A DNA stretch of 64,000 bases, from contig JBNKDE010000008.1 of the NCBI GenBank assembly GCA_050288105.1, positions 22,683 through 86,682 of the forward strand, in the 5' to 3' direction. Positions 7,005 to 47,106 of the stretch are shown one piece after another. A program made the translations under genes and the position numbers. Each line of letters opens with the position of its first letter. The stretch's first letter is position 1. Below the pieces are notes generated by a model, which ran no database searches, had not been told where the DNA came from, and saw only the letters and a list, made by a program, of their open reading frames with translations. This DNA comes from Gammaproteobacteria bacterium. GTDB taxonomy: Bacteria; Pseudomonadota; Gammaproteobacteria; GCA-001735895.

Positions 7005-7741
7005 ACAGTCAAAATATTCTGCTAGGTGTCAATATCGACCATGTCGCAACCTTACGTCAAGCGCGGGGGACTCGTTATCCAGACCCGGTGACCGCCGCTT
7101 TGATCGCAGAACAGTCGGGTGCTGATTCGATTACCTTTCATTTGCGCGAAGATCAGCGCCATATACAGAAAAGAGATTGCTACCTGCTAAAGCAAATGGT
7201 TCAGAGCAAGCTTAATCTGGAGATGGCGGTGACGGACGAAATGCTGGATTTTGCTGCTGAGTTACAACCTCAGGATTGCTGTCTGGTACCGGAGAAAAGA
7301 GAAGAGCTTACCACCGAAGGTGGGCTGGATGTGGTTCAGGGGTTTTCGCGTGTTAAAACAGCCTGTGAGCGTCTGGCTCAATGTGGCGTCAGGGTTTCAT
7401 TGTTCATTGATGCAGATGAAGCCCAGATCGATGCGGCCATTGCCTGTGGTGCGCCTGTTATTGAACTACATACTGGTCACTACGCCGATGCCAGCGCTGC
7501 TGAGCAGCAACGTCTATTAGATCAGATTAATCATGCTGTTGATTATGCCAGTGATAGAGGCCTGCAGGTGAATGCCGGGCATGGACTACACATACATAAT
7601 GTTCAGGCCATTGCAGCCAATACAAAAATTGTTGAGCTGAATATCGGGCATGCAATCATTGCGGATGCGGTATTCAATGGCCTGGCCAGTTCGGTTAGAG
7701 AAATGAAACGCCTAATGATAGAAGCTCGTTTATTAAAATGA
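7001..7741 (+). CDS. pdxJ: pyridoxine 5'-phosphate synthase
   Basis: [16 protein letters not shown]-terminus characteristic of PdxJ; 246 aa. Confidence 0.95.
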
Positions 7742-8118
7742 TTGCAGGACTGGGTGTCGATATTGTTGAAATCGAACGTACTAAAAAGCTGCTAGATCGC
7801 TTTGGAGAACGGTTTATCAATCGCGTGTTAACGGCTAATGAGATCCAGCAGTTTGAGTATCGCAATTGCTCTGCCACCTTTTTGTCCAGTCGATTTGCCG
7901 CTAAAGAAGCTGCCAGTAAAGCCCTGGGTAAGGGCATTGCTGCCGGGGTGAATTTTCACTCATTCGAGGTCAGCAACGATAAGTATGGAAAACCACAGCT
8001 GCAGTTACATGGTGCGGCACTTGAATTGAGTCAGCAAATGAAAGTTACAAGGACTCTGTTAACCCTATCAGACGAAAAGCACTATGCAGTTGCCATGGTG
8101 GTGATGGAGACAGACTGA
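7738..8118 (+). CDS. acpS: holo-[acyl-carrier-protein] synthase
   Basis: 126 aa, GxGxDIVEI start, conserved position after pdxJ. Confidence 0.9.
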
Positions 8119-8123
8119 CCGGA

Positions 8124-10832
8124 TCATGCTGTGCTTTTGATATTCATTTCAGCAAGTATATGATTAATCTCCTGTAACTCAGTGCGAACGTTCTGTGCAA
8201 TGTCTGGTATATCATGCACGGCAGTGTTTTTTGCGCGTTCGTACTGGTCGAGTAACTGTTTGAGTTTAGGAAGCCCTGCATAACAGGTTACACCATGAAG
8301 CTTATGCATAATCTTTTCAAAATCTGCCATAGAGCTCTGCTCAATCGCAAGCTGGAGATTTTTTCGATAGCTGGGGATTTCCTGTACTAACATGCTGAAT
8401 ATCTGATCTACCAGTTTTTGATTACTGGCAGATAACTTGTAGGTTAAATCAGTATCTACCGATAATTCTATATTCTGAACAAAGGTTTCTGTTGAGGGCT
8501 CATTATCTTCAACTTCGGCTTTGTCTAGCAGGGCTTTCAGTTTATTTTCTTCAATCGGTTTGCTGAAATAGGCGTCAAAACCTAAATCTAATAAACGTTT
8601 CTTTTCAGACTCCAGTATGTTGGCAGTGATTGCTGCTATGGGTGCTTTTAAATCTGGTTTCTCCTCACGCATCATCTGCATGAGTTTTACGCCATCGATT
8701 TCGGGCATCTGGATATCCAGCAGAATAAGGTCAAAGTTCTTGACGCGAAATAGTTGCATAGCCTGGGTGGCATTACTCGCTTCAAACGGGTGGTGCCCCC
8801 ATAATTGAGCAAGCTCAACCGCCAGTGCCAGGTTTATCGGATTATCGTCGACGATCAAAACACTATGTGGAGAAACTTCAGGGTCAGTTTGTGGCCTGAT
8901 CGCGACTTCCAGGCTTTGCTGTGATCTGGTTAAAAGGCGCTGCAGGTTTTTACAGGTATTGATTACGGAAATGAATTCAAAAGCTTCATCAGCTGGAAGT
9001 TTTATCAGGCTTAAATCATAGTGCATGAGAATAATTCGTTTCTGATGACGTAAGGAAGCATCAAACAGTTGTTCTGGTTGAATACTCGTATGTCTCAGAT
9101 CCATCACGATGAAATCGATATATGCCAGATTTTGGGCTATCTGAGATTGAATTTTGGGTATATCAACTTGCGCATCAATCAGCATAAATTCGGTATTAAA
9201 GCCTGCTCGATTATACAGCGATTGAATCTCGTTTAAGGTTCTCTGGTCAAAAGCGACAATCAGGCAGGTATCGGTAGGCGCAGGGCTTACATGCTGCTCC
9301 TGATCCTCCTCACTACAGGTTTTGAAGGGTAGCGTCAGGGTAAATAAGGATCCAAAGTTGGTGACGCTATCCAGTATGATATCTCCCCCTAGTAAATGAG
9401 CCAGGTTTTTCGAGATTACCAGGCCCAGACCTGTTCCAGAAAAACGCCGATTGCTATCGGATTCAATTTGTTTAAAGGCCTGGAATAGCTGCTTTTGATC
9501 TTCTTTGGAAATTCCAATACCTGAATCGCGTATCTTGAACTTGATTACGACCTGGTCATCGCTTTCTTCTTCCAGATGCACGACTATTTCTACATAGCCA
9601 GCGTCGGTGAATTTAATTGCGTTACCGATAAGATTGATCAGAATTTGTTTGAGGCGTAATTTATCTCCAATCAAAAACTGTGGTGTATCGCTATAGATTG
9701 TCAGGAATAGATCTATTTTTTTATCCATAGCGGCAGTAAACAGGCTATCACGCGTGGCTTCTACCAGTTCATATAAATCAAAGCGTCCTTCTATGATTTC
9801 TACTTTATCCGATTCTATTTTGGAAAAATCCAGTACCTCATTCACAATGCTACTCAGATCCGAAGTTGACTGGTTGATGATTTCAGCGTAGCGACGCTGC
9901 TGTGAATTTAGGTTTGTCTGTGTCAGTAAATTCGCAAAGCCCTTGATACCATTGATAGGCGTTCGGATTTCGTGACTGATGTTGGCAAGAAACTGTGATT
10001 TTACTTTATTAGCATTCTGGGCCTCATCTCTGGCCAGGGAGATTTCACGATTTTTATACTCGAGATCGGTAATAGCGTTCATTAAGTCCAGCGTTGCTGT
10101 TTTGATTTTCTGGTCAAGCTGCATACGATTAGCAAGCAGTGATTGCGACATGCTGTTGAAGCCTTTTTGCACATCACCGATTTCATTATTCTCTACGGGT
10201 TTGATCACCTCTCCGAGGTGACCGGTTTCAATTTTCTTCAGATAATCTATCAGGGTAAATACGGGCTGGGTAATACGTCGACTGATGAAAAAAGTGAGCA
10301 CCACTGCGAGTAACATAGTTGTGCAGAAGACAATGAGCGCTTCCTTATAGATTGCTATTTTGCTTTCATGCAGCCGCTGTCGTGAGATATACAAATGCAC
10401 CCAGCCCAGATTTCGAAAGCTATCCAGAGAGGAGTTAATCTGTGTGCTAAAAACATCAGCGCCTTCAAGGTTCTGGGTTTGAATTGGGTAACGGTAATAC
10501 AGGTATTGAGAGCTGTCAGCGGCGGAATATTCTTTAGAACTTACCTGAGCGATTTCATCGCCTTTACTGTCGTACACCGCAGTAAAAACAATATCATTGG
10601 TATTCACAGAGCGATTTAATAGATATTGAATGTGCTCATAGTTACCGGAAAAAAGATCAAATTCCGATGCTCCAGCGATTTGTTTGGCAATGATCTCGCC
10701 TTTGCTCTGTAATATTTTCCCCGCCTGGGTAATACTGTTGTTAACGTGAATATAGGTGAGTATCACGGCAATCATAAATACCGGGATCATCATGATCATC
10801 AGGATCTGTAGTTTGATGCTGTGACGTCTCAC
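8124..10832 (-). CDS. hybrid sensor histidine kinase of BarA/GacS architecture (2 TM + periplasmic domain, HAMP, HisKA, HATPase, receiver, C-terminal Hpt)
   Basis: Carries the H-box SHEIRTPINGI, G-boxes, a receiver domain (LIVDDNPINL...D) and an Hpt motif (HKLHGVTCYAGL). The HAMP-to-H-box linker strongly resembles BarA/GacS. Starts with GTG and overlaps the upstream ORF by 4 nt. Confidence 0.85.
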   Translation of the reverse strand: MRRHSIKLQILMIMMIPVFMIAVILTYIHVNNSITQAGKILQSKGEIIAKQIAGASEFDLFSGNYEHIQYLLNRSVNTNDIVFTAVYDSKGDEIAQVSSKEYSAADSSQYLYYRYPIQTQNLEGADVFSTQINSSLDSFRNLGWVHLYISRQRLHESKIAIYKEALIVFCTTMLLAVVLTFFISRRITQPVFTLIDYLKKIETGHLGEVIKPVENNEIGDVQKGFNSMSQSLLANRMQLDQKIKTATLDLMNAITDLEYKNREISLARDEAQNANKVKSQFLANISHEIRTPINGIKGFANLLTQTNLNSQQRRYAEIINQSTSDLSSIVNEVLDFSKIESDKVEIIEGRFDLYELVEATRDSLFTAAMDKKIDLFLTIYSDTPQFLIGDKLRLKQILINLIGNAIKFTDAGYVEIVVHLEEESDDQVVIKFKIRDSGIGISKEDQKQLFQAFKQIESDSNRRFSGTGLGLVISKNLAHLLGGDIILDSVTNFGSLFTLTLPFKTCSEEDQEQHVSPAPTDTCLIVAFDQRTLNEIQSLYNRAGFNTEFMLIDAQVDIPKIQSQIAQNLAYIDFIVMDLRHTSIQPEQLFDASLRHQKRIILMHYDLSLIKLPADEAFEFISVINTCKNLQRLLTRSQQSLEVAIRPQTDPEVSPHSVLIVDDNPINLALAVELAQLWGHHPFEASNATQAMQLFRVKNFDLILLDIQMPEIDGVKLMQMMREEKPDLKAPIAAITANILESEKKRLLDLGFDAYFSKPIEENKLKALLDKAEVEDNEPSTETFVQNIELSVDTDLTYKLSASNQKLVDQIFSMLVQEIPSYRKNLQLAIEQSSMADFEKIMHKLHGVTCYAGLPKLKQLLDQYERAKNTAVHDIPDIAQNVRTELQEINHILAEMNIKSTA

Positions 10833-11755
10833 TGCGATTCACCTGATTTGAGTTGTTGCATGATCAGTTGATCCGAGGGCAGTGCGATTTGAAGTGAGTA
10901 AGCAACCTGCCGGTTAATTTTGATCTGGAATCCTTCAGCGTAAAATTCCTGATCCTGTTTTCCTAACGAACCTGATAATAGTTGGTTTAATGTGCCAGCT
11001 AACTGTTCACCAATCTGCGCCGGTGAAATATAGATGGCGGCCAGGGCACCTGATTTTACATGTGCAGGAGAATAGCTCACTACAGGCTTGTTTAGTCTAT
11101 AGGAAGATAACAGTATTCCTTTCAGCGTTTGGTGATTGTAAATGGCTGGTTCTGGAAGGCTGAGCAATACATCGTCGATTTGCAGAATATTACGCACTCG
11201 GGTTATGGGGTTGTCTTCGGGATTGAGTATGTATTGATCGACCTTCAGCCCCGTAGTTTTTTCTGCGCGTTGAATAGTCTGCAAACTGAATTTATTATTT
11301 TCGGTTTTAAAAATACCTACCTTATCAACGGGTAGAAGCAACTGAATAAATCTCAGGTATCTTTCAAAAGGTTGATCCAGCAGCACACTATAGTGCCGAC
11401 CTTTACGATCATGATGGTTTAACTGAAATTCAGTAATGTAACTATGTATGAATGGAACATCCTTTTCAATTTCATTGGTTAGCTCTGCTGCTTTGGTACC
11501 TAAAGTGATGATGATGTCAGGATTATAATCTTGATGGTTCTTTTCGTAGGCCCGGGCAGTAACGATATTGAACTTGACCTTGCGTTCAGTTTTGTTAATC
11601 AGCTTTTCTATGCTTTGGTTATAAAATTGATTTTCATGGCTTTTGATAATAAGAATAGATTCATCCGCAGCAGCAACTGAAAATGATAACAGGCAGGTCC
11701 AGATAAGCGAAAGCCAGCTAAATAACTTCCTGAGTTGTTGGGATAGTCCTTGCAT
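10829..11755 (-). CDS. periplasmic substrate-binding-like protein (COG2984 / ABC_sub_bind-like), translationally coupled to the hybrid kinase
   Basis: Signal peptide, then alternating beta/alpha segments resembling PF04392. Its stop overlaps the kinase start. Confidence 0.55.
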   Translation of the reverse strand: MQGLSQQLRKLFSWLSLIWTCLLSFSVAAADESILIIKSHENQFYNQSIEKLINKTERKVKFNIVTARAYEKNHQDYNPDIIITLGTKAAELTNEIEKDVPFIHSYITEFQLNHHDRKGRHYSVLLDQPFERYLRFIQLLLPVDKVGIFKTENNKFSLQTIQRAEKTTGLKVDQYILNPEDNPITRVRNILQIDDVLLSLPEPAIYNHQTLKGILLSSYRLNKPVVSYSPAHVKSGALAAIYISPAQIGEQLAGTLNQLLSGSLGKQDQEFYAEGFQIKINRQVAYSLQIALPSDQLIMQQLKSGESQ

Positions 11756-11764
11756 AAATTTTGT

Positions 11765-13885
11765 TTAAAATCTCCCCGATATCCTTAGCAGGTATGATTC
11801 ACTGTGGGACCTAAACGGGCTGTAGTCTGTATAGGTTTCGTAAAGATCTCGGCCAATTAATTCCAGATTCAGGTCATGTCGCTGATCAATTGTGTACTGG
11901 TACCGTAGATCCAGCTTTCGGTAAGCATCCATGGTTCTGTTTGAATCGGTCCAGGAAAAACTGTCTACAAAATAAAGCACCCCTGATATCTGTTGACGAT
12001 CGGCGAGATTATAGTGTCCGCCAATATAATAGGTGAGCTCGGGATAGGAATCTTTATAATCGTCGAAACTTTCCTTAACCTGTACATAGCTGGAGCCGCC
12101 AAATATTCGATAGTCTTTTTGTTCTGGACTAAAATTTAGCGACAGGTCTATTCCTCGAACAACCGTACTGCCCGCATTTATAAAATCACCAATGATTTGA
12201 TTAGTACCGGTGACTGGATCTGGAGTGAATTCGGTATACTGCTCGTCGATTTGATCAGAGACTTTGTAGTGGAAAAATTTTATGTCCGTTGTCAGTTGCT
12301 GGTTGAGATACTCGCTAAAGATACCTATCTCCGTCGATTTAATCGTCTCCGGGTCAACATTGCCGCTCGCGCGCCAGTCTACTATCGGTAAAGATGCGGA
12401 TAGCGGCGGGATATAGACTTCATATTGGGTGCTCCCAAGCAACTCGTACAGTATTGGATTTCGGTTTGCAGTTGATGTGACCAGTCTTAGCGTATGTTGA
12501 CCTGCCTTTTTCAATGCCGAAATACGGTAGGAGGTTTCAGTATCGGTATAGCTTGAGTCCTCCAGCATGACGCCCAGGTCCAGGATGTAGCCATTGTTCG
12601 ATTTCCATTCGACACTACTGAATAAACGCTGGGTATCCACACGGTGGGTTGAGTCGTCATTGAATAAATGTATCGATACCACTTCATCCTGGCGTAAACT
12701 CATGCCATAGACCCATTGGGTGCTAGGGCTCACTTTACGCGTCTGGTATAGCTCGAAATCAAGGCGATCCGATCTGCGGTCGAAATCAACTGTGAAATAA
12801 AAGGGCGCGCTTGATCGTATGAATGGGGCATAGCTTTCATAACTGGTGCCGATGGTTAGATCGGCGATAAAGTCATTCAGTGGCGCGGTCGGGTATTTAT
12901 CGTTCACAACCTGGCGCGTATGCGTGATGGCCGCCACGGTACTGCTGCTGTCCTGAACCATTTCCCATTTTAAATTCTGATAGCTGTTGCTGGTTTCTTC
13001 ATCTCGAATCGTGTTGGTTACATCTCCGTCGCCTCTCCCTACCGTGCTCTGGTTCAAACCAGCCTGGATGGTCCAGAACTGGTTATACTCAGACAGGAAA
13101 TCAGTGCGGATATTGATTTTTTCCACGCTGCGAGAATCATTGATGTTTTCATAGCCATCATCCTGCTCACGCCCCGCAGTGATACGCCAGTCCAGGTCTC
13201 CATAGTTGTTCCCATAGCGCGCATAAAAATCGTTTACCGAGTTATCCTTTCCAAATCCCTGTGTCATGATGATTTCGCTACCTGCATCCTCGGCGGCATG
13301 GCGAGTTATGATATTGATGGTGGCCAGGAAGGCATTGGCGCCATAAGTGACCGCGTTCGGGCCTCGGGTAATTTCTACCCGTTCAATGTCTTCTAGCAGT
13401 AAAGGCAGGTTGCTCCAGGGTATGCCGCCAAATGAAGGTATAAATACCGAGCGGCCGTCAATGAGCACCTGCATCTGGCGTTGATAAAGCGAACCTAATC
13501 CCTGATAAGAAACCAAAGGTTGATTTCCGGTGTAGTAGCCGACAATAAATCCGGGCACCATACGAAAGATATCAGCGACCTGACGCGCACCTGAGTCGCG
13601 AATCATCTGGCGGTCAATGATACTTACCGAAGCGGGTGATTCATCAAGTGGCTTGTGCATTCTGGATACTGTTAATACCACGGGAGCTTCACCAAAAAAG
13701 TCGCTGCCTGCGTCGTAGTCTATGGTGGTTGAATCGCTCCCGTAAGCGGGCAGGATATATAGCCATGCTAGTCCTAAAAAAGCTGGTATTCTCAACTTAA
13801 ACCCCTTAATCAAAACTGTATAGCGATAGTTTAAGCCGATTGAATCGAGTAAACTACGCATCAAATTATTATTGTTTAAACCCAT
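11765..13885 (-). CDS. TonB-dependent outer-membrane receptor
   Basis: Plug-domain motifs, a C-terminal beta-barrel ending in an aromatic residue (...RISGRF), about 700 aa. The true start is probably an internal codon: a signal-peptide-like stretch (LRIPAFLGLAWLYILPAYG) sits about 25 residues into the ORF. Confidence 0.8.
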   Translation of the reverse strand: MGLNNNNLMRSLLDSIGLNYRYTVLIKGFKLRIPAFLGLAWLYILPAYGSDSTTIDYDAGSDFFGEAPVVLTVSRMHKPLDESPASVSIIDRQMIRDSGARQVADIFRMVPGFIVGYYTGNQPLVSYQGLGSLYQRQMQVLIDGRSVFIPSFGGIPWSNLPLLLEDIERVEITRGPNAVTYGANAFLATINIITRHAAEDAGSEIIMTQGFGKDNSVNDFYARYGNNYGDLDWRITAGREQDDGYENINDSRSVEKINIRTDFLSEYNQFWTIQAGLNQSTVGRGDGDVTNTIRDEETSNSYQNLKWEMVQDSSSTVAAITHTRQVVNDKYPTAPLNDFIADLTIGTSYESYAPFIRSSAPFYFTVDFDRRSDRLDFELYQTRKVSPSTQWVYGMSLRQDEVVSIHLFNDDSTHRVDTQRLFSSVEWKSNNGYILDLGVMLEDSSYTDTETSYRISALKKAGQHTLRLVTSTANRNPILYELLGSTQYEVYIPPLSASLPIVDWRASGNVDPETIKSTEIGIFSEYLNQQLTTDIKFFHYKVSDQIDEQYTEFTPDPVTGTNQIIGDFINAGSTVVRGIDLSLNFSPEQKDYRIFGGSSYVQVKESFDDYKDSYPELTYYIGGHYNLADRQQISGVLYFVDSFSWTDSNRTMDAYRKLDLRYQYTIDQRHDLNLELIGRDLYETYTDYSPFRSHSESYLLRISGRF

Positions 13886-14759
13886 GAAACTCGAAGATTA
13901 TATCGGAAATACCCCATTGGTAACATTGCAGCGTTTAGGTGCTGAAAATTCAACCAACAAAATCATGCTGAAACTTGAAGGCAATAACCCTGCGGGGTCT
14001 GTGAAAGACCGCCCGGCGCTAAGCATGATCAAGCAGGCCGAGCTGCGCGGTGAAATCAAGCCGGGTGACACCTTGATCGAGGCTACCAGTGGTAATACCG
14101 GTATAGCGCTGGCTATGGCGGCTGCGATCAAGGGCTATCGCATGATCATTATCATGCCTTCTAACATGAGCCTGGAGCGCAGGGCGGTGATGAAAGCCTA
14201 TGGTGCTGAATTGATACTGGCGGACGATATGATGGTTGCACGCGATCTCGCACTGGAGATGCAACAGCAGGGTAAGGGCAAGGTGCTGGATCAGTTTGCT
14301 AATCAGGATAATCCTCTCGCGCACTATGAAAATACCGCGCCTGAGATCTGGCAGCAAACCGGGCAGGGTATCACACATTTTGTCAGCTCCATGGGCACTA
14401 CCGGAACCATTGTGGGCTGTGCCAGGTACTTTAAGGAAGTCAATCCAGAAATCCAGGTTATAGGTGTTCATCCGGCAGAGGGTGCTGTCATTGCAGGCAT
14501 CAGACGCTGGCCTGAAGAGTATCTACCGAAGATATATGACCCCAGTAACATAGATCAGATTCTGGACGTCACGCAGCAGGAAGCGGAGCAAACTACGCGG
14601 GACCTGGCTGCCAAGGAAGGTATCTTCTGCGGCATTTCCTCAGGAGGTGCTGCCGCTGTTGCGCTGCGCCTGTCGCAGACATTAGAGAATGCGACTATTG
14701 TCAGTATTGTCTGCGATAGAGGTGACCGCTATCTCTCAACCGATGTTTTTCCTGCCTGA
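13884..14759 (+). CDS. cysM: cysteine synthase B
   Basis: Very high similarity to CysM: LEGNNPAGSVKDRPALSMI and PLP-binding TSGNTGIALAM. Start called at the ATG at 13884; the ORF track begins at a TTG at 13872. Confidence 0.9.
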   Translation: MKLEDYIGNTPLVTLQRLGAENSTNKIMLKLEGNNPAGSVKDRPALSMIKQAELRGEIKPGDTLIEATSGNTGIALAMAAAIKGYRMIIIMPSNMSLERRAVMKAYGAELILADDMMVARDLALEMQQQGKGKVLDQFANQDNPLAHYENTAPEIWQQTGQGITHFVSSMGTTGTIVGCARYFKEVNPEIQVIGVHPAEGAVIAGIRRWPEEYLPKIYDPSNIDQILDVTQQEAEQTTRDLAAKEGIFCGISSGGAAAVALRLSQTLENATIVSIVCDRGDRYLSTDVFPA

Positions 14760-14773
14760 GCAGGTGATAGCAT

Positions 14774-15550
14774 TTGATGAACGTTCTGGTTTTTGCGCTA
14801 CAGACCGTGCCCGATATCGACGGGGCAAGAAGGCTGTATGACCTACATGGACTGTCCGATGATGATGTAGCTCGCGCGGTGCTGCACAAACGTAGACAGG
14901 CTTTTTGCAGCGAGACATTCCCTGTCCATTTACAGAAAATCGTAACGATCTCCGCGGTGTGGTCTAATGCGGAGCGTTTCAAGGTCTGGTCGCTTGGTGA
15001 TGTGCAGACCAGCGAACAGGATTTACTACAGCGCTTTTATGATGGTATCGAACGTTTCACGCCTAGGCTGGTTTCCTGGGGTGGAACTGAATTTGAAAAG
15101 CCTGTGCTGCATTATCGCTCATTGCTGTATAGCGTGAACGCCACGCGTTACTGGGAAATGGGGGATAAGGAACCCCAGTTTAAGGAGAATAACTATCTTC
15201 AGCGCAGCCATCAGCGACATACCGATTTGCGAGAGGTATTAGCTGCTGACAGTGATCCTAAAGAGGCTGGATTGAATGCGATAGCGAAGCTATGCGGTTT
15301 TCCCGGAAGCCTCCATGCTGATACGCACAGTGTTTCGACATCCAGCACTGGGGTCGATATCAAAATGTTGAACCAGCTCGGCGAATGCAGGGTACTTAAT
15401 ATCTATCTGCTATATCTGAACTGGGAACGAAACCGCGGTAATCTCACCCCGCTGCAATACACTGAACGATGTAAAACAATCCGTTCTGCACTGATACAAT
15501 CAGAATCATCTCACCTGATCGAGTTTGAAAAAAACTGGATCGACTATTAA
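14774..15550 (+). CDS. predicted 3'-5' exonuclease related to the PolB exonuclease domain (COG3298-like, RNase H-like fold)
   Basis: 258 aa. The N-terminal LVFALQTVPDIDG matches Exo motif I (D-x-E-like, acidic pair), and acidic/Tyr motifs follow downstream. Confidence 0.5.
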   Translation: MMNVLVFALQTVPDIDGARRLYDLHGLSDDDVARAVLHKRRQAFCSETFPVHLQKIVTISAVWSNAERFKVWSLGDVQTSEQDLLQRFYDGIERFTPRLVSWGGTEFEKPVLHYRSLLYSVNATRYWEMGDKEPQFKENNYLQRSHQRHTDLREVLAADSDPKEAGLNAIAKLCGFPGSLHADTHSVSTSSTGVDIKMLNQLGECRVLNIYLLYLNWERNRGNLTPLQYTERCKTIRSALIQSESSHLIEFEKNWIDY

Positions 15551-15567
15551 TTCAACAACTACTTACC

Positions 15568-16893
15568 ATGTCCAGAAGAAATCGCCAGCGGCAACTGCCT
15601 GAACCGTTTGAAGTTACTATTGAAGGTCTGTCACATGAAGGCCGAGGCATCTGCCATCATAACGGGAAGATTGTATTTGTATTTGCAGCCCTGCCGGGTG
15701 AAGTGGTCAGAATACAGATTAACAAAACCACCAGAAAATACTCTGAGGCCAGCGTCGTGGAGGTGATTTCTGCATCACCTGACCGGATTCAACCACACTG
15801 CCCCAATTTTTCGGTGTGCGGCGGTTGCAGCATGCAACACGTGAGCTCACAAACTCAGCTTAAGCTCAAGCAGCAATCCTTGCGGGAAATGATAGAACAT
15901 GCAGGCATCCAGGTCGGTCAGTGGTTGCCTCCGCTCACTACGGTGCCCTGGGGATATCGTCGTAAGGCCCGCCTCGGGGTCAAGTATGTAATCAAAAAGC
16001 AACGCCTGTTGATTGGCTTTCGTGAACGCAATAAACCTTATCTTGCCGACATGCAGCAATGCCCCATTCTGCTGGAGCAGGTTGGCCAGCAGTTACCCTT
16101 ATTGATGGATTTGATATCCGGTCTACAGGCTCGCGAAACCATTCCGCAGATTGAGGTGGCAGCCGACGACGAGCATTGCATGCTGGTGCTGCGACACCTG
16201 AAACCCTTATCCGATACTGACCTGCAGCAGTTGACCCAGTTTGCAAGGGATAATGATTTCTGGATCCAGCTGCAACCCGGAGCTGCTGATTCAGTGATTC
16301 CGCTTTATCCCGAACAGCAGGTTCTGCGTTTCAAACCATTGCGCGATGCTGACCTATCGATACGCTTCAAACCGGGTGATTTCACACAGGTAAATGCGGA
16401 TATCAATCAGCAAATGGTGCAACAGGCATTGCAGTTTCTCAACCTGCAGCCGGAAGATCGCGTGCTGGACCTGTTCTGTGGCCTGGGTAATTTCACTTTA
16501 CCCATGGCGAGGCTGGCGAGCCAGGTTATCGGTGTAGAAGGGGATGAGGCAATGGTGTTACGAGCGCGCGAAAACGCTCTGGAACATGGCCTTGAGAATA
16601 CGGCGTACTATGTGTCAGATTTGACCAAGATTGATGCATCAGCGCCCTGGATGAAGCAAAAGTTCGATAAAATCCTGCTGGATCCGCCCAGATCTGGTGC
16701 TTTTGAAATGGTTGAACATTTGAGCGCTATGCAGGCTAAAACGATCGTCTATGTATCCTGTCAGCCTTCCAGCCTGGTACGAGACGCACGCATTTTATGT
16801 GATGCGGGTTATGATCTGGATTATCTTGGCGTGATGGATATGTTTCCGCAGACAGCCCATGTAGAATCCATGGCTGTGTTCAACAAAAAATAA
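15568..16893 (+). CDS. rlmD: 23S rRNA (uracil1939-C5)-methyltransferase RlmD (RumA)
   Basis: N-terminal TRAM domain, a 4-Cys Fe-S cluster (CPNFSVCGGCSMQH), a C-terminal SAM methyltransferase with DPPRSG motif. Confidence 0.9.
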   Translation: MSRRNRQRQLPEPFEVTIEGLSHEGRGICHHNGKIVFVFAALPGEVVRIQINKTTRKYSEASVVEVISASPDRIQPHCPNFSVCGGCSMQHVSSQTQLKLKQQSLREMIEHAGIQVGQWLPPLTTVPWGYRRKARLGVKYVIKKQRLLIGFRERNKPYLADMQQCPILLEQVGQQLPLLMDLISGLQARETIPQIEVAADDEHCMLVLRHLKPLSDTDLQQLTQFARDNDFWIQLQPGAADSVIPLYPEQQVLRFKPLRDADLSIRFKPGDFTQVNADINQQMVQQALQFLNLQPEDRVLDLFCGLGNFTLPMARLASQVIGVEGDEAMVLRARENALEHGLENTAYYVSDLTKIDASAPWMKQKFDKILLDPPRSGAFEMVEHLSAMQAKTIVYVSCQPSSLVRDARILCDAGYDLDYLGVMDMFPQTAHVESMAVFNKK

Positions 16894-33955: not shown

Positions 33956-35821
33956 ATGAATCATTATCCCCTGTGGAAGTACCTACTTCTCATCTTTGTG
34001 GTGGTGCTGGGACTGGTGTATGCAGCCCCCAACCTTTACGGAGAAGATCCGGCTGTTCAGATTTCGCATCGCGTTAATCTGGTTAACCAGGAAGAGCTCA
34101 ATAATATCACCGCATTGCTCAAGAATCTGGGCATCGAGTATCGTTCGATAGAGCTGGCTGACGGCAATATACTGGTGCGATTTAAATCTGAAGAAGCCCA
34201 GTTGAAAGCGGCGTCGGATATCAAGGACGCTCTGCAGGATCAGGATAATCGCTATACCGTGGCTCTAAACCTGGCGCCTGCGACGCCGGACTGGTTAACC
34301 AGTCTGAACGCGCTGCCCATGTACCTGGGTCTGGATCTGCGCGGTGGTGTGCACTTCCTGATGGAGGTGGACATGGAAGAAGCCATCGTCAAAGCGCTGG
34401 ATCGGTCTGGCACCGAACTACGCGGATTCATGCGCGAACAGAAGATTCGCTATCGCACAGTACAGGTCAACAAGGACAATCTAACGATTCGTTTTAGCGA
34501 TACTGCAGAAAGAGAAAAGGCGATAACCCTGCTGGAAGATGAATTCAGGGATTTTGAGTTTAATAAGGCTGATGAAAATAATTCTGCGCTGATCGTTATG
34601 ACCTATAGCCAGCAGGCCCTGGTGGAAGAAAAGAAAGCAGCTTTGACGCAGAATATTTCGACGCTTAAAAATCGTGTTAACGAACTGGGTGTTGCCGAGC
34701 CGTTGATACAGCAGCAGGGTGAAGATCGTGTTGTGGTCCAGCTTCCCGGTGTGCAGGATACCGTGCGCGCAAAAGAAATACTGGGTGCTACCGCTACCCT
34801 CGAGTTCAGGCTGGTACATGGCTCTCTGGCCGACTGGCAAACTGCGGCCAGCAGCGGCAAGGTCCCACTGGGTGCGAAACTGTATAAAGAGACCGATGGC
34901 TCTCCGGTACTGCTTAAGCGCAGCGTTATTGTGACCGGTGATCAGATCGTCGGCGCAGCTTCTGGTATCGACACTCAATCCAGTTCCCCCGATGTCACCA
35001 TCACCCTGAACAGCAAGGGTGCTGATCGCATGAGCAAGGTGACGCGGGATAATGTCGGTAAACCGATGGCTGTTGTGTTCATTGAAGATAAATATGAATT
35101 TATCGATCAGGACGGTACCCAGAAACGTATTAAGACCACTGAATCCCGAGTCATCAATGTGGCAACGATTCGCGATCAGCTCAGCAAGCGTTTCCATATT
35201 ACTGGCCTCGATTCTACGCGTGAAGCGCGTGATCTGGCCCTGTTATTGAGAGCTGGTGCATTACGCGCACCCATGGTGATTGTTGAGGAAAGAACGGTAG
35301 GACCTAGTCTGGGACAGGAGAATATCGACAAGGGACTTAAATCGGTAGTTATCGGATTTTTCGCGGTACTGATCTTCATGACACTTTATTACAAACTGTT
35401 CGGTGTGGTTGCGAATATCGCCTTGACCCTGAATCTGGTATTAATCGTGGCGATTCTATCGATGCTTCCGGCAACGCTTACCTTACCGGGTATTGCAGGT
35501 ATTGTGTTAACCGTTGGTATGGCGGTGGATGCGAATGTGTTGATTTTTGAGCGTATTCGCGAAGAACTCAGGCTGGGTAACTCGCCTCAGGCGTCCATTT
35601 ATGCCGGATACCAGAAGGCGTTTAGTACCATTGCTGATGCGAATATAACGACATTTATTGCAGCAATCGTACTGTTTGGTTTCGGAACCGGTCCAATCCA
35701 GGGCTTTGCGGTTACCCTGTCTATCGGTATCGCGACCTCTATGCTGACGGCCATTATGGGCACGCGCGCAATTGTTAATCTCATTTACGGTCGTAAACAG
35801 ATCAAAAAGCTGGCTATCTAG
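33956..35821 (+). CDS. secD: protein translocase subunit SecD
   Basis: 621 aa, a large periplasmic domain plus 6 TM, LGLDLRGGVHF motif. Confidence 0.95.
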   Translation: MNHYPLWKYLLLIFVVVLGLVYAAPNLYGEDPAVQISHRVNLVNQEELNNITALLKNLGIEYRSIELADGNILVRFKSEEAQLKAASDIKDALQDQDNRYTVALNLAPATPDWLTSLNALPMYLGLDLRGGVHFLMEVDMEEAIVKALDRSGTELRGFMREQKIRYRTVQVNKDNLTIRFSDTAEREKAITLLEDEFRDFEFNKADENNSALIVMTYSQQALVEEKKAALTQNISTLKNRVNELGVAEPLIQQQGEDRVVVQLPGVQDTVRAKEILGATATLEFRLVHGSLADWQTAASSGKVPLGAKLYKETDGSPVLLKRSVIVTGDQIVGAASGIDTQSSSPDVTITLNSKGADRMSKVTRDNVGKPMAVVFIEDKYEFIDQDGTQKRIKTTESRVINVATIRDQLSKRFHITGLDSTREARDLALLLRAGALRAPMVIVEERTVGPSLGQENIDKGLKSVVIGFFAVLIFMTLYYKLFGVVANIALTLNLVLIVAILSMLPATLTLPGIAGIVLTVGMAVDANVLIFERIREELRLGNSPQASIYAGYQKAFSTIADANITTFIAAIVLFGFGTGPIQGFAVTLSIGIATSMLTAIMGTRAIVNLIYGRKQIKKLAI

Positions 35822-35829
35822 GAACTATT

Positions 35830-36756
35830 ATGGCTCTTATACGTGAATATAATTTTATGGGCATTCGCAAGATAGCCCTGACGACTTCTATCATCGTCAT
35901 GCTGATCTCTATAGCCAGCCTGGTCGTTAACAAGCTCAACGTCGGTATCGATTTTACTGGTGGTAGTGTGATTGAAATCGGCTATCAGCATGCAGTAGAA
36001 CTGGAACCTATTCGTCAGGGTCTGGCTGATGCAGGATACGCCGATGCCATTGTGCAGCACTTTGGCAGCGCGAAAGAAGTGTTAATCCGTCTGGTACCCC
36101 GTGAAGGACAGAATAAGGCGGAACTCAGTACCCAGGTGATTAGCTTACTGGAGAAGCTGGATAGCGATACCATCGATGTACGCCGGGTGGATTTTGTTGG
36201 TCCTCAGGTAGGTAAGGAACTGACCGAAGACGGTGGTTTAGCCGTTTTGTATGCGTTGATCGCGATTCTTATCTATGTGTCGTTGCGATTCGAATACCGC
36301 TTCTCGCTGGGTGCGGTCGCGGCGCTGATCCACGACGTGGTGATTACGCTGGGTGTGTTCTCCATTCTGCAGCTGGATTTCGACCTGACTGTACTGGCCG
36401 CAATCCTGGCTGTGATTGGATATTCACTCAACGATACCATTGTTGTGTTTGATCGTATCCGAGAAAACTTCCGCAAGATTCGCAAAAAGTCAGCTCTTGA
36501 GATTACCAATACCTCAATCAATCAGACGATTTCCCGAACCTTGATGACCTCTATTACGACCTTGCTGGTGTTAATCTGTCTGTATGTGTTTGGTGGAGAA
36601 GTGATCGCCTCTTTTGCCCTGGCTCTGATTGTTGGTGTCGTGGTCGGTACCTATTCATCCATTTATGTTGCGAGTTCAACTGCACTGGCTTTAGGCATTT
36701 CCAGGGAGGATTTGTTGATACCGGAAAAGAATGAGGAAGAACTGGATCGCCCTTAG
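35830..36756 (+). CDS. secF: protein translocase subunit SecF
   Basis: 308 aa, GIDFTGG motif, follows secD. Confidence 0.95.
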   Translation: MALIREYNFMGIRKIALTTSIIVMLISIASLVVNKLNVGIDFTGGSVIEIGYQHAVELEPIRQGLADAGYADAIVQHFGSAKEVLIRLVPREGQNKAELSTQVISLLEKLDSDTIDVRRVDFVGPQVGKELTEDGGLAVLYALIAILIYVSLRFEYRFSLGAVAALIHDVVITLGVFSILQLDFDLTVLAAILAVIGYSLNDTIVVFDRIRENFRKIRKKSALEITNTSINQTISRTLMTSITTLLVLICLYVFGGEVIASFALALIVGVVVGTYSSIYVASSTALALGISREDLLIPEKNEEELDRP

Positions 36757-41534: not shown

Positions 41535-43445
41535 ATGGGTGACATGCTAGGTAACGCGGTCAGTGGTTTACTCTCGTTTCAACGTGCGTTAACCACCACC
41601 AGCCATAATATTGCGAACGTCAACACACCCGGCTACAGCCGTCAAAGTGTGGAGCTGGATACGCGCAACCCGGTGAAACTGGGTGCTGATTATATTGGTA
41701 GCGGAGTTGAGATTACCGATGTCAGACGTGCGTATGACCAGTTTATTACCAGTAATTTGAGAGACAGTACTTCAAACTACACCCGGCTGGAGAAGTTTAC
41801 CGAACTGGCTGGGCAGATAGACGATATCCTGGCCGATCCCCAGGGCGGGCTGTCGCCCGTGCTACAGGAGTTTTTCAGTGCAGTGCAGGATGTTAATGAC
41901 GATCCCTCCTCGGGTTCTGCAAGATACCAGTTGATCAGCGCGGCGGAAACCCTGGTGAGCCGCTTTCATTCCTATGATACGCGTCTTCAATCGGTGGCTA
42001 AAAATACCGAAGGCGAAATAAAAATCAGCGTAGAAGAAATCAACCAGATTACTGCCCAGATCGCTCAGCTAAATGCCACGCTGGAGCAAAACAATGCTTC
42101 GGGTAATCTGGATCAGCAAGCTTCAGATTTACTGGACCAGCGTGATGCGCTGCTGCAGGAGTTGTCTACCAAGGTCAGTATCCAGGTTATTAATGAACGC
42201 CAGAATAACATTACCGTGCTTATCGGTAATGGCCAGACTGTGGTTGCTGGTGGCTCATCATTTGACCTTAACGTGCAACCAGATGTTTCTGACCCCAGCC
42301 GGAGTATCATTGTGTATAACGGTTTATCCTCATCTAGCGATATCAGCGCGCAATTAAACGGTGGTGAACTCGGTGGATTGCTGGATTTCAGGAATAACAT
42401 GCTGGAGCCAGCTATAAATTCACTGGGTAGGATGGCTATCGGGCTGGCAGACAGCTTCAACGATCAGCACAATGAAGGAATGGATTTGCTGGGTAATCTG
42501 GGTGTCGATTTTTTCAGTTTTAACCAGCCTCAGACGATTCAACATACTGCGAATACCGGCACAGCTACGGTTACCACGACCATCACCGACATCAGCCAGT
42601 TGACCACAGAAAACTATACGCTGGCATTTAACGCAGGTGTCTGGACCGTAACATCGACTAGCGGATCTTCCAGCGTGATCACTGCGCCTAGCGATACCTT
42701 TGAAGGTCTCACCTTTAATATTGCTGGTGCTGCAGCTAATGGTGACAGGTTTACCATCAAACCCACAGCAGAAGGCACTGGCTCAATTAATGTCGCTATA
42801 TCAGACCCCAACCTGATTGCTGCTGCTGCCGCTATCAGGACCTCAAGTTCGCTGAACAATCTGGGCGACGCCACCATCAGTCAGGGAGAGGTGACTGATG
42901 CAGCTAACGTGAACCTGCTGACTACGGTCGATCTAACTTTTAATAATCCGGCTACAGATTTTACGGCGACTGCCGATGTAGTGGTTAATGGTGTTACCTA
43001 TGCAGCGGGCAGCAATATTCCCTACAGTAAAAACATGCAGATAGAATCCAATGGCTGGCAGGTCAGTCTGGATGGTAATCCCCAGGCTGGTGATACGTTT
43101 TCAATTGAGTCAAATCAGGGTGGCAGGGGAGACAATAGAAACGGATTGGCGCTTTCAAATCTCCAGATACAGGGTATTTTTGATCGCGGTACGAATAGCT
43201 ATCAGGAAGCCTATAGCACGGTTGTAGGACGCATTGGTTCGCTAGCTAGCTCAGCGATGAATGATCGCGATGCACAGGAAGCACTGATGACGCAGGCGGA
43301 AGACCGCAGAAGCCAGCTAGCGGGTGTGAACCTGGATGAAGAGGCCGCGGACCTGATTAAATATCAACAGGCTTATGAAGCAGCAGCGCGGGTGATCACG
43401 GTTGCTCAAACATTGTTTCAATCACTGATTGATTCCACGAGGTAG
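41535..43445 (+). CDS. flgK: flagellar hook-associated protein 1 FlgK
   Basis: Conserved N-terminus (ALTTTSHNIANVNTPGYSRQ) and C-terminus (NLDEEAADLIKYQQAYEAAARV); 636 aa. Confidence 0.9.
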   Translation: MGDMLGNAVSGLLSFQRALTTTSHNIANVNTPGYSRQSVELDTRNPVKLGADYIGSGVEITDVRRAYDQFITSNLRDSTSNYTRLEKFTELAGQIDDILADPQGGLSPVLQEFFSAVQDVNDDPSSGSARYQLISAAETLVSRFHSYDTRLQSVAKNTEGEIKISVEEINQITAQIAQLNATLEQNNASGNLDQQASDLLDQRDALLQELSTKVSIQVINERQNNITVLIGNGQTVVAGGSSFDLNVQPDVSDPSRSIIVYNGLSSSSDISAQLNGGELGGLLDFRNNMLEPAINSLGRMAIGLADSFNDQHNEGMDLLGNLGVDFFSFNQPQTIQHTANTGTATVTTTITDISQLTTENYTLAFNAGVWTVTSTSGSSSVITAPSDTFEGLTFNIAGAAANGDRFTIKPTAEGTGSINVAISDPNLIAAAAAIRTSSSLNNLGDATISQGEVTDAANVNLLTTVDLTFNNPATDFTATADVVVNGVTYAAGSNIPYSKNMQIESNGWQVSLDGNPQAGDTFSIESNQGGRGDNRNGLALSNLQIQGIFDRGTNSYQEAYSTVVGRIGSLASSAMNDRDAQEALMTQAEDRRSQLAGVNLDEEAADLIKYQQAYEAAARVITVAQTLFQSLIDSTR

Positions 43446-43447
43446 TC

Positions 43448-44659
43448 ATGCGAATTTCAACTACACAGATCTATGGTCAGGGACTGAAGGCTTTTGGTGA
43501 GCAGCAGGCCAAACTGGCTAAACTGCAGCAACAGATCTCTACCGGGCAACGCCTGACCAAGCCCTCCGATGATCCGGCGGCCTCTGCAAGAGTGCTGGAG
43601 CTGGAACAGACTGTCGCTATTAACGAACAATATCAGTCCAATATCAGCCAGGCGCAACATCGCCTGCAGTTGGCGGATACCACGCTCGATTCGATTGAGA
43701 ATATAATGCAACGTGTCAGGGAACTGGTGATCCAGGGAAATAATGCCACCATGAGTGCAGAGTCTCGCGATGCGATAGCCAATGAAATCGACGAGCGGTA
43801 TAAGGAATTGATATCGCTGTCCAATACGACCGATGAAAATGGTGATTACCTGTTTGCCGGGTATCAAAATCAGTCCGTGCCATTTACAGAGCTAACCACG
43901 GGCTCAATCCAGCAGGTGCAGTTTAATGGCGACCAGGGACATCGATATTTTCAGATTAGCCAGAGCCGTCAGATTGATGCAAGCATCAATGGGTCAGAAG
44001 TATTTATGCAGGTGTCCAGCAGCAGTGGCTTAAATGAATTTAGCGCTGCGGGCAATACCGGTACTGGAACTATGGCGGCTGCGCATGTCATTGATCAAAC
44101 GCAATATGTTCCTGGTGATTACCAGATCGTATTCTCCGATCCAGCCGCACCACCTCAAACCTATGACGTGATTGATCTTTCCGGGCCAACTACTATCGTT
44201 GCGGGTGCCATTTATACTGATGGAGACATGATTGATTTCCAGGGTATACGCACGAGTATTACCGGCACCCCGGCAAATGGAGACAGCTTTACCATCAGTT
44301 CGGGTCAGTATCAGGATATTTTCAGTGTTTTAAAAAACACCTCTGAAACGTTACGGGCCTCTGGTTCGAGTGATGTGAGGGCAGCAAATCTGGCGCAGGC
44401 GCTATCGGATATCGATTCAGCGATGACGAACCTTATCGAGAGTCGAACCAAGGTCGGTGGCCGGCTAAATGCGGCTGAAAGCCAGGCAGCGGACAATGAA
44501 GCTTTCATTCTGGCAACCAATGAATCACTAGGGGTGCTGCGTGATACTGATCTCGCTGAAGCCATTAGCCAGTTATCTCTGGAGCAAACGATTCTGGATG
44601 CTGCACAGGCTGTATTTTCACGTATCACCCGTTCTTCTTTGTTCAATTATTTGCGTTGA
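43448..44659 (+). CDS. flgL: flagellar hook-associated protein 3 FlgL
   Basis: Flagellin-like N-terminus (MRISTTQIY) and a C-terminal helical segment; 403 aa. Confidence 0.85.
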   Translation: MRISTTQIYGQGLKAFGEQQAKLAKLQQQISTGQRLTKPSDDPAASARVLELEQTVAINEQYQSNISQAQHRLQLADTTLDSIENIMQRVRELVIQGNNATMSAESRDAIANEIDERYKELISLSNTTDENGDYLFAGYQNQSVPFTELTTGSIQQVQFNGDQGHRYFQISQSRQIDASINGSEVFMQVSSSSGLNEFSAAGNTGTGTMAAAHVIDQTQYVPGDYQIVFSDPAAPPQTYDVIDLSGPTTIVAGAIYTDGDMIDFQGIRTSITGTPANGDSFTISSGQYQDIFSVLKNTSETLRASGSSDVRAANLAQALSDIDSAMTNLIESRTKVGGRLNAAESQAADNEAFILATNESLGVLRDTDLAEAISQLSLEQTILDAAQAVFSRITRSSLFNYLR

Positions 44660-44807
44660 AACAGAGAGCCTGCGACTGCATTATTTGCTAAATTTTGCTT
44701 TAAAGGGCTTTGTTGATGTGCAACTTGCTGATTTTATTGGCTTTAGTGATCAGCAAAGGCTTCGTTCAGGTTTCCATATTTCTTCAATCTTCATCCAAAA
44801 AAAATCC

Positions 44808-44834
44808 TAAAGTATTTTCCCTTGTTGCCGTTAA
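44808..44834 (+). promoter_or_regulatory. sigma-28 (FliA) class III flagellar promoter for fliC
   Basis: TAAAG-N14-GCCGTTAA has one mismatch to the TAAAGTTT-N11-GCCGATAA consensus. It lies about 90 nt upstream of the fliC ATG. Confidence 0.6.
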
Positions 44835-44925
44835 CTACACTGAGAGGGAAAACCAGGCAGCATCGGTGACCCGGAATTTTTAACGTTTGGCGCTGAAAAA
44901 AGCGTGGAATTTAGGAGAGATTACA

Positions 44926-46440: not shown

Positions 46441-46502
46441 TAGAGGTTAGAGGATCGGCTTGGTAATAAAAGCCGGTCCTCTACTCAAAGCGGAGAAGAA
46501 AC

Positions 46503-46925
46503 ATGGCTAACGAGATTTCAAGTATGGTTCAGGCACAAGTGCCCGCACCTGCACAAAAATCGGGCCAGTTTGTTAAGCTTGAAGCTGCTAACGTGCCTGA
46601 GATGCGCGGCCAGTCCTTGCCTGAAGAAGGTCAGAAATTGCCCCAGCAGGAAAGTAAACAGTCAGTAGATCAGTCTCAGCTTCGTGAAGCTGTCAGCCAG
46701 ATCAATAGTTTTGTGCAGAGTGTACAACGCGATCTTTCCTTTAGTTTGGATGAGGGTAGCGGACGTACCATAATCAAGGTTATTGATTCTGAAAGTGGAA
46801 AACTGGTAAGGCAGATACCATCAGAAGAAGTATTGGCCCTTGCATCGTATCTGCAGGATATGAAGCAGGAAAGCACGACTGGTGGTACAGTTCCTTCAGG
46901 GATATTATTCTCTGATCGTACTTAG
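46503..46925 (+). CDS. flaG: flagellar protein FlaG
   Basis: 140 aa. The C-terminal block RDLSFSLDEGSGRTIIKVIDSESGKLVRQIPSEEVL is typical of FlaG. Confidence 0.8.
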   Translation: MANEISSMVQAQVPAPAQKSGQFVKLEAANVPEMRGQSLPEEGQKLPQQESKQSVDQSQLREAVSQINSFVQSVQRDLSFSLDEGSGRTIIKVIDSESGKLVRQIPSEEVLALASYLQDMKQESTTGGTVPSGILFSDRT

Positions 46926-47106
46926 AGGAACTGGTCTGTTTTTTGCAAACTAACTTAAGTACTGACCAGGAGGGAAATGGAGGCATCCATTTCCCTCTGA
47001 TTTCAGGAAAGTGGCTAATTTCCTGAAAACAACCGCAGATGCTGTACATCTGCTATGCTTTTACAAACGATTCAGATTGATTTGATCTGCAAGGTGAGAT
47101 ACAGCA

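Follow-up and report, generated by a model that had tools for sequence, protein, structure and literature searches.

The 64-kb stretch of DNA analysed here (64,000 nucleotides, positions 22,683 to 86,682 of contig JBNKDE010000008.1 in assembly GCA_050288105.1; hereafter the window) comes from an uncultured gammaproteobacterium. Three open reading frames (ORFs) occupy positions 8124-13885 of its minus strand and encode, in the order of reading, a TonB-dependent receptor (TBDR), a periplasmic substrate-binding protein (SBP) and a hybrid histidine kinase of the BarA/GacS type. Kinases of this type head the Gac/Rsm (Csr) cascade, which governs virulence, biofilm formation, secondary metabolism and carbon flow in many Gammaproteobacteria, and the periplasmic signal that they perceive is, to our knowledge, still debated. 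The sensory trio of the window, which we call the cassette, was found again at well above a hundred further loci in bacteria, and it may show how the GacS/BarA kinase family is fed.

The three genes are tightly packed. The TBDR gene (11765-13861, plug and barrel; its longest ORF, 11765-13885, has 706 codons for as many amino acids) stops 9 nt before the ATG of the SBP gene (10829-11755, 308 aa). The TGA of the latter and the GTG start of the kinase gene (8124-10832, 902 aa) share 4 nt, the sequence GTGA at 10829-10832, an overlap that points to translational coupling. A sequence-only reading of this DNA had placed the kinase last in such a group, overlapping by its GTG a signal-peptide-bearing protein of the ABC_sub_bind kind that itself follows a TBDR, with no response regulator alongside. 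Each of these points was borne out: the families of the SBP and of the TBDR are confirmed below by profile searches, and tblastn with a GacA-class regulator (taken from the L049 locus, see below) found no response regulator in the 64-kb window. A sigma-70 consensus scan and a terminator scan of the operon yielded no significant promoter and no internal terminator, nothing exceeding the expectation from shuffled sequence, so that co-transcription of the cassette is argued from gene spacing only.

The kinase

Six Pfam domains were found in the kinase, in the order sCache_4, HAMP, HisKA, HATPase_c, Response_reg and Hpt, with two transmembrane segments (TM1 and TM2) flanking sCache_4. This is the layout of an unorthodox hybrid kinase, and the one that had been described from the letters of the sequence (TM-periplasmic domain-TM-HAMP-HisKA-HATPase-receiver-Hpt). 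All coordinates in this section are on the minus strand. The periplasmic sensor domain spans approximately residues 30-160 (10353-10745) and was recognised as sCache_4 with 25.8 bits, against a gathering score of 22.1; the HAMP domain covers residues 182-233 (10134-10289; PF00672, 34 bits). The three residues expected of a phosphorelay align with those of E. coli BarA: H287 (H1, the autophosphorylated histidine; codon at 9972-9974) with H302, the receiver aspartate D706 (D1; 8715-8717) with D718, and the Hpt histidine H843 (H2; 8304-8306) with H861.

The resemblance to BarA/GacS, also claimed beforehand, extends over the whole protein. Among NCBIfam models, BarA (NF008318) came first with 544.6 bits, residues 1-872 of the kinase matching positions 1-890 of the 920 in the model, followed by TorS (386 bits, partial match) and LetS (379 bits, full length). 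In BLASTP, E. coli K-12 BarA (NC_000913) was 29% identical (E 1e-112) and colinear over 918 columns, sensor region included. The best sequence match in the PDB was 7z8n (250 bits), labelled 'Histidine kinase', which we take to be the cytoplasmic part (HAMP-DHp-CA) of GacS from P. aeruginosa. Residues I6, K7, Q9 and L11 are invariant among homologues and align with the N-terminus of BarA; owing to this conservation, we favour the GTG start over the downstream ATG selected by the gene caller.

The N-terminal part of the kinase (residues 1-241) was modelled with AlphaFold2, at a predicted local distance difference test (pLDDT) of 77.6. A homologue search with this sensor region had given 13 fragmentary proteins, which served solely as alignment for the prediction. 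In the model, TM1 runs into a long periplasmic helix, followed by a sheet of 4-5 strands, TM2 and HAMP, which is the organisation of a single PDC/Cache domain. Its closest structures in a fold search were LapD-type and WalK extracytoplasmic domains. We propose this single PDC/sCache fold as the putative docking surface for the SBP.

A binding protein without a transporter

The SBP passes the PF04392 (ABC_sub_bind) model with 36.6 bits, compared to a gathering score of 25.9, and belongs to a divergent subfamily of it. Its N-terminus, MQGLSQQLRKLFSWLSLIWTCLLSFSVAAA, reads as a signal peptide and is devoid of a lipobox. Searched against solved structures, the profile of the family hit 3LKV (1.6e-10) and 3LFT (1e-7). 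The AlphaFold2 model was of high confidence (pLDDT 91.3) and displayed the two-lobe, Venus-flytrap fold of type-I binding proteins. Its nearest structures according to Foldseek were again PF04392 proteins, namely 3LKV, 3LFT (with L-Trp bound) and CD0873 (6HNI/6HNJ). The cleft residues of type-I binding proteins lie just after beta-strands, and this is where, by alignment and model together, the most conserved positions of the SBP are found, in the motifs LDQP, SYSP and GALAA.

No gene for a permease or ATPase of the ATP-binding cassette (ABC) type was linked to the SBP in any locus with identified neighbours, be it in the window, in the relatives or next to the distant homologues described below. 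The SBP is therefore an orphan periplasmic binding protein, and a role in amino-acid uptake through an ABC transporter was rejected on this ground. Solved PF04392 proteins bind Trp, Tyr or Phe (PMC10443332). An aromatic amino acid is not readily transferred to the SBP as a ligand, since the SBP belongs to a distant subfamily, as judged from its score of 37 bits on the TrpX equivalog model of NCBIfam, far under the cut-off of 390. A requirement for a TBDR, where there is one, also suggests a ligand that is larger or scarcer.

The TonB-dependent receptor

The third protein is a TBDR, as had been stated, with a Plug domain (PF07715, 75.4 bits) and a sequence ending in ...ISGRF. The Plug begins some 50 residues past the signal peptide, and Pfam detected no N-terminal signalling domain before it. 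A FecA-type TonB-dependent transducer was considered and rejected, given the lack of this domain and of genes for extracytoplasmic function (ECF) sigma and anti-sigma factors nearby.

The nearest NCBIfam family of the window TBDR is TOL_0244 (NF053590), with 162 bits against an equivalog cut-off of 645. Five other cassette TBDRs were scanned; TOL_0244 was again the best family, with 187-252 bits, all under 645, so that we regard the cassette receptors as a subfamily related to TOL_0244 and not as members of it. The only paper found to mention TOL_0244 itself is a proteomics study in which long-chain alkane induced this receptor (PMC6304351). The similarity is too distant for this link to be transferred to the ligand of the cassette.

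The start of the TBDR gene needs correction, as position 13885 collides with the ATG of the divergent cysM gene at 13884 and is improbable. The longest cysM ORF, from a TTG at 13872, is itself too long. The true TBDR start is probably either ATG 13861, which the gene caller chose (in L001), or TTG 13795, with the ribosome-binding site AAGGGG in front of it and the signal peptide MRIPAFLGLAWLYILPAYG starting from it. These corrected starts leave 22-88 bp between the TBDR gene and cysM. The divergent intergenic region, read from the sequence as 13796-13883, is presumed to hold the promoters.

Conservation of the locus in related genomes

Scanning one genome per GTDB species with a profile of the SBP gave 45 loci, whose neighbouring genes were identified by tblastn. 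All 45 come from uncultured Gammaproteobacteria; they include the Olavius algarvensis Gamma 3 symbiont and a metagenome-assembled genome (MAG) whose 3.7-Mb chromosome is complete. Wherever the contig was long enough, the order of the locus was kept (45/45): an exonuclease gene (exo) and cysM, the divergent [TBDR]-SBP-kinase group, and convergent acpS-pdxJ-recO-era. The SBP and kinase genes were never split. Synteny in relatives, which the sequence-only reading had suggested looking at, is thus complete for the SBP-kinase pair, found at this locus in every case, and partial for the receptor: of 40 loci that contained both cysM and SBP, 29 had an intact TBDR, one a decayed TBDR (L034) and 10 none. 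In L034 (8072-9149), the receptor is spread over two reading frames and its C-terminal half is gone, so that it is a pseudogene. The TBDR is being lost in some lineages while the SBP-kinase pair is retained. The stop codon of SBP and the start codon of the kinase overlapped as ATGA, GTGA or TTGA in about 40 of 52 related loci.

Divergence was uneven along the locus. Compared to the closest relatives (L002-L005), identity was 91-94% for CysM, 79-81% for the kinase, 85-88% for its sensor domain, 64-68% for the TBDR and 59-61% for the SBP. The fast divergence of SBP and TBDR could reflect a diversification of ligand specificity built on a small conserved docking patch; it could also indicate a functional tie looser than the one proposed below.

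One locus has an aberrant organisation. In L029 (6856-17729), a tandem repeat was observed, cysM-TBDR-SBP being followed by a partial cysM and then by TBDR-SBP-kinase. The repeat may be a genuine duplication of the front end, or it may have arisen during assembly. The contig is labelled as part of a Polaribacter MAG and was probably mis-binned, because its genes are gammaproteobacterial.

Chromosomal position of the kinase gene

Two genes on the plus strand, divergent from the cassette, identify its location: cysM (13884-14759), whose product scores 505 bits on the CysM equivalog model (cut-off 413) and which marks the gacS/barA slot, and rlmD (15568-16893; RlmD equivalog, 571.9 bits). A gacS-cysM-ygcA(rlmD)-relA neighbourhood has been reported for P. 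aeruginosa, Cellvibrio japonicus and Hahella chejuensis (PMC12800425). In E. coli (NC_000913), barA is divergent from rlmD-relA and lies between rlmD and gudD, with neither SBP nor TBDR gene adjacent. The comparison with the gacS of pseudomonads, made beforehand on the basis of the divergent cysM, holds: the kinase operon, divergent from cysM-exo-rlmD, occupies the gacS/barA chromosomal slot. With BarA (and 7z8n) as best matches, a complete architecture and conserved phosphorylation sites, the kinase is very probably the positional orthologue of gacS/barA in this uncultured gammaproteobacterial clade.

Other components of the pathway were searched for nearby. The L049 regulator and E. coli CsrA, used as tblastn queries, gave no match in the window or the loci. 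Rfam at its gathering thresholds found no Csr/Rsm RNA in the whole window, two tRNAs being the only matches, and Pfam scans of the other large ORFs of the window revealed no second histidine kinase.

The same front end with other outputs

Distant homologues of the SBP (25-35% identity) were then inspected in their own contigs, which offer unrelated genomic contexts. In 9 out of 9 cases, the gene directly after that of the SBP, usually overlapping it, encoded a TM-sCache_4-HAMP protein, and in 6 of the 9 a TBDR gene was placed directly upstream. The sensor modules were attached to two kinds of output. In L047, L048, L052, L053 and L057-L060, the output consisted of GGDEF-EAL domains, which are enzymes of cyclic di-GMP (c-di-GMP) signalling; the two records with an organism label were from Methylophilaceae. 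In L049, L054 and L055, the output was that of a BarA-like hybrid kinase, with 513-714 bits on the BarA model. One of the GGDEF-EAL loci, L057, is on a contig of 2.75 Mb (assembly GCA_000799155.1), a size that suggests a cultured strain. The kinase version is so far confined to uncultured lineages.

The L047 cassette, from Methylophilaceae, illustrates this exchange of outputs. Compared to the window, its TBDR is 34% identical (E 3.5e-88), its SBP 28% and the N-terminus of its sensor 27%, whereas the output domains differ. The N-terminus of the GGDEF-EAL protein matched positions 1-264 of the BarA model. In L049, we noticed a gene for a REC-GerE regulator of the GacA/NarL class (7100-7756) directly upstream of SBP and BarA-like kinase, which makes this locus a complete linked system.

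A scan of metagenomes with a profile of the Methylophilaceae-type SBP produced 80 further loci. Whenever enough downstream sequence was available, the BarA-type sensor module (TM-sCache_4-TM-HAMP) came right after the SBP (71/71). Outputs were GGDEF-EAL in 41 cases and kinase in 17, with one unassigned. The in-frame ATGA/GTGA overlap was seen in 48 of 72 loci, and a homologous TBDR was encoded upstream in 49 of 64 and absent from the other 15. An exhaustive search with hidden Markov models (HMMs) showed how large the SBP subfamily is: clustered at 50% identity, it comprises no fewer than 2,357 clusters for E <= 1e-30, and 5,849 for E <= 1e-10. We conclude that TBDR, SBP and TM-sCache_4-TM-HAMP constitute a portable front end, serving phosphorelay or c-di-GMP outputs.

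Remainder of the window

Past the 3' end of the kinase gene, Pfam and NCBIfam identified era-recO-pdxJ-acpS, convergent on it; on the side divergent from the TBDR, the order is cysM, a PF10108 exonuclease gene, rlmD, glnK and amtB. The PF10108 gene (14774-15550, between cysM and rlmD) encodes a predicted 3'-5' exonuclease related to the exonuclease domain of PolB. It has no NCBIfam match and was found in the majority of related loci extending this far. Other large ORFs of the window include secDF (33956-36756) and ppc (55602-58430). The flagellar genes flgK, fliC (flagellin) and fliD are located at 41535-49149, and their presence indicates that the source organism is probably motile.

A proposed signal relay and its alternatives

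We propose that the cassette works as a relay from the outer membrane to the cytoplasm. The TBDR would bring a ligand that is scarce or bulky through the outer membrane, and the orphan PF04392-type SBP, translationally coupled to the kinase, would capture it in the periplasm. The SBP would then dock on the single-Cache (sCache_4) periplasmic domain of the kinase. Such docking, if it depends on the ligand, would shift the signal transmitted through TM2 and HAMP and so set the kinase/phosphatase balance of the H287 -> D706 -> H843 phosphorelay, which would feed an unlinked regulator, presumably of the GacA/UvrY type. Elsewhere, the same front end would drive GGDEF-EAL c-di-GMP enzymes in place of the kinase. 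SBP and sensor very probably form a functional pair. For the full relay, from import by the TBDR through capture by the SBP and docking on sCache_4 to an altered output of the kinase, our confidence is moderate, and this is the reading that we favour.

It draws on the fact that the SBP-sensor pairing is invariant and translationally coupled, that it persists independently of genomic context and output, that the SBP comes with no transporter, and that the TBDRs are homologous to one another. Invariant adjacency of SBP and sensor is the pattern expected, by analogy, of a co-receptor of the LuxP-LuxQ, TorT-TorS, AioX-AioS or NspS-MbaA type. Periplasmic presentation of a ligand in the manner of LuxP-LuxQ or TorT-TorS, which the sequence-only reading had put forward, is in this way supported by comparative genomics (adjacency in 45/45, 9/9 and 71/71 loci, and no permease). 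The periplasmic domains of LapD and WalK bind protein partners; the kinship of the kinase sensor domain to both hence fits a docking role, and falls short of a proof.

Several observations weigh against this interpretation. The TBDR is absent from about a quarter of the loci and is a pseudogene in L034. The pair of SBP and sensor can therefore do without import by this receptor; the ligand may take other routes as well, or the genome may hold a receptor gene at another place. The divergence of the SBP far outpaces that of the sensor domain, contrary to what would be expected if the two simply co-evolved across a large interface. The sCache_4 match of the kinase in Pfam is weak and partial, and the solved periplasmic domain of GacS was not recovered with the sensor domain, in either sequence or fold search. 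The kinase falls below the NF008318 equivalog cut-off (544.6 bits against 890) and is by that criterion a distant member of the family. In addition, the window lacks gacA, csrA/rsmA and rsm/csr RNAs, so that the downstream Gac/Rsm pathway is an assumption. Finally, the well-studied barA and gacS genes have no adjacent SBP gene, and for this reason the hint on the input of the kinase may not transfer to GacS/BarA of model organisms.

One alternative touches orthology only, and in it the kinase would be a BarA-like paralogue with a specialised local role and not the global GacS/BarA orthologue. A score under the equivalog cut-off would be natural for such a paralogue, and BarA-like kinases linked to an SBP do occur in non-syntenic contexts (L049, L054, L055). 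This is nevertheless unlikely: in all 45 related genomes the gene sits next to cysM-rlmD, where gacS/barA is found, BarA is the best full-length model match and 7z8n the best match by sequence among solved structures, and the set of domains and phosphorelay residues is complete.

Turning to the relay itself, the SBP might be a ligand-independent accessory subunit of the sensor (an inhibitor, a scaffold or a stabiliser), the TBDR being a separately useful neighbour. YycH/YycI for WalK and LapG for LapD are precedents of accessory protein partners, and it is LapD-type and WalK domains, working through protein partners, that the periplasmic domain of the kinase most resembles in structure. The dispensability of the TBDR in many loci and the fast evolution of the SBP relative to the sensor domain would fit as well. 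However, the SBP keeps in its model a complete two-lobe Venus-flytrap fold, with its conserved LDQP, SYSP and GALAA motifs sitting where cleft residues generally lie, and roughly three loci in four, from very different lineages, have kept the TBDR too, with receptors that are homologous to one another. The last two facts favour a small-molecule cargo, and we consider an accessory subunit of this kind distinctly improbable.

Less probable still, TBDR and SBP could be a nutrient-uptake pair with ABC components encoded elsewhere, the linkage to the kinase reflecting co-regulation or hitch-hiking. PF04392 is annotated as a family of ABC-transporter binding proteins, those solved bind Trp, Tyr or Phe, and the promoter and terminator scan gave no proof of co-transcription. 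Yet a permease or ATPase gene was adjacent in no locus with identified neighbours, and on the TrpX equivalog model the SBP reaches no more than 37 of the 390 bits required. Moreover, the BarA-type sensor module directly follows the SBP in 45/45, 9/9 and 71/71 loci, with varied neighbourhoods and outputs, and frequently overlaps it by 4 nt; hitch-hiking does not predict such linkage. That signalling runs inside-out, the cytoplasmic state of the sensor changing its periplasmic domain so that the SBP is captured or released and uptake through the TBDR controlled, is the least credible of these schemes: most metagenome partners do have the TM-periplasmic-TM-HAMP-GGDEF-EAL architecture of LapD, which signals inside-out, but outside-in is the established direction for phosphorelay kinases of the BarA/GacS type, kinases and GGDEF-EAL proteins share the same front end, and there is no inner-membrane transporter from which the SBP could be withheld.

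We return to the relay, in which ligand-loaded SBP would act on the sensor from outside. As a probable positional orthologue of gacS that comes with two dedicated upstream components, the window kinase makes the signal question tractable, through the ligand of a soluble SBP of 30 kDa. The PF04392 subfamily, annotated 'ABC transporter substrate-binding protein', appears to be a co-receptor of sCache_4 phosphorelay and c-di-GMP sensors, in many cases accompanied by a TOL_0244-like TBDR. A far-reaching extension, which we find doubtful, is that the BarA/GacS sensor module (sCache_4) generally, and perhaps ancestrally, receives its input through a dedicated SBP: the Gac/Bar signal would here be imported by a TBDR and presented by a PF04392 protein, GacS/BarA of model organisms would have lost this partner or would use an overlooked, unlinked periplasmic protein, and the GGDEF-EAL version would stand for a large unrecognised class of TonB-fed sensors.

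Comparison with known systems

BarA/UvrY of E. coli, GacS/GacA, VarS/VarA and LetS/LetA match the window kinase in the order of their domains and in all three phosphorelay residues. They also share with it the sCache_4 periplasmic module, the cysM/rlmD slot and a response regulator that is unlinked. In contrast, the genes of the model organisms stand alone, whereas the window kinase is translationally coupled to an SBP, usually preceded by a TBDR; it is only 29% identical to E. coli BarA and stays below the NCBI equivalog cut-off. The sCache_4 domain (formerly DUF2222) has been described as the sensory module of BarA/GacS/VarA-type kinases, and a survey of Cache domains recorded it in 713 sequences, of which 705 were kinases and one a GGDEF protein (PMC4822843). 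The numerous sCache_4-GGDEF-EAL proteins were therefore not apparent at the time of that survey.

A binding protein acting as the co-receptor of a sensor is a known principle. In LuxP-LuxQ and TorT-TorS, the binding protein is the actual receptor of the ligand and docks on the periplasmic domain of the kinase (PMC8050422, Table 1). As in the window, an orphan gene for a periplasmic binding protein adjoins that of a hybrid kinase, with no transporter. The families differ: the binding proteins are Peripla_BP_4 and Peripla_BP_1, against PF04392 in the window, and the sensor folds dCache-like and HBM-like, against a single sCache_4. Neither has a TBDR, and the interaction, proven for both, is inferred for the window. 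AioX-AioS-AioR, which senses arsenite, likewise has an orphan SBP gene beside that of a kinase with an sCache-like ligand-binding domain (PMC8050422). Unlike the window system, AioX is of the Phosphonate-bd family, AioS is not a BarA-type hybrid kinase, and there is no TBDR. The counterparts of the GGDEF-EAL cassette are NspS-MbaA and ScrB-ScrC, in which an orphan SBP controls an adjoining membrane GGDEF-EAL protein (PMC8050422); their SBPs are of the SBP_bac_8 and SBP_bac_3 families, their sensors are dCache-like and, here again, there is no TBDR.

With respect to TonB-dependent signalling, the cassette differs from FecA-type transducers in that its relay is proposed to pass through a soluble binding protein. 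TonB-dependent import and a kinase-linked module with a binding-protein fold are combined in one locus in the polysaccharide-utilisation loci of Bacteroides, with hybrid sensors such as BT1754. In these loci, the sensor polypeptide itself contains the binding-protein fold, the transporter is of the SusC/SusD type and the output is a fused AraC-type regulator, features in which the cassette differs.

A 2021 review of SBP-stimulated receptors lists 13 families of binding proteins and the folds of their receptors, with kinase systems that include HptA-HptS and ChvE-VirA, and contains neither PF04392, sCache_4, BarA/GacS nor TonB-dependent receptors (PMC8050422). No published description of the cassette was found in the literature on PF04392/COG2984, on sCache_4/DUF2222, on GacS/BarA with SBP or TonB, or on TBDR-SBP-diguanylate cyclase. 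Set against these systems, four features of the cassette appear to be new: the families that are paired, a first step that is frequently TonB-dependent, a front end that can be moved between phosphorelay and c-di-GMP outputs, and the involvement of the gacS/barA locus.

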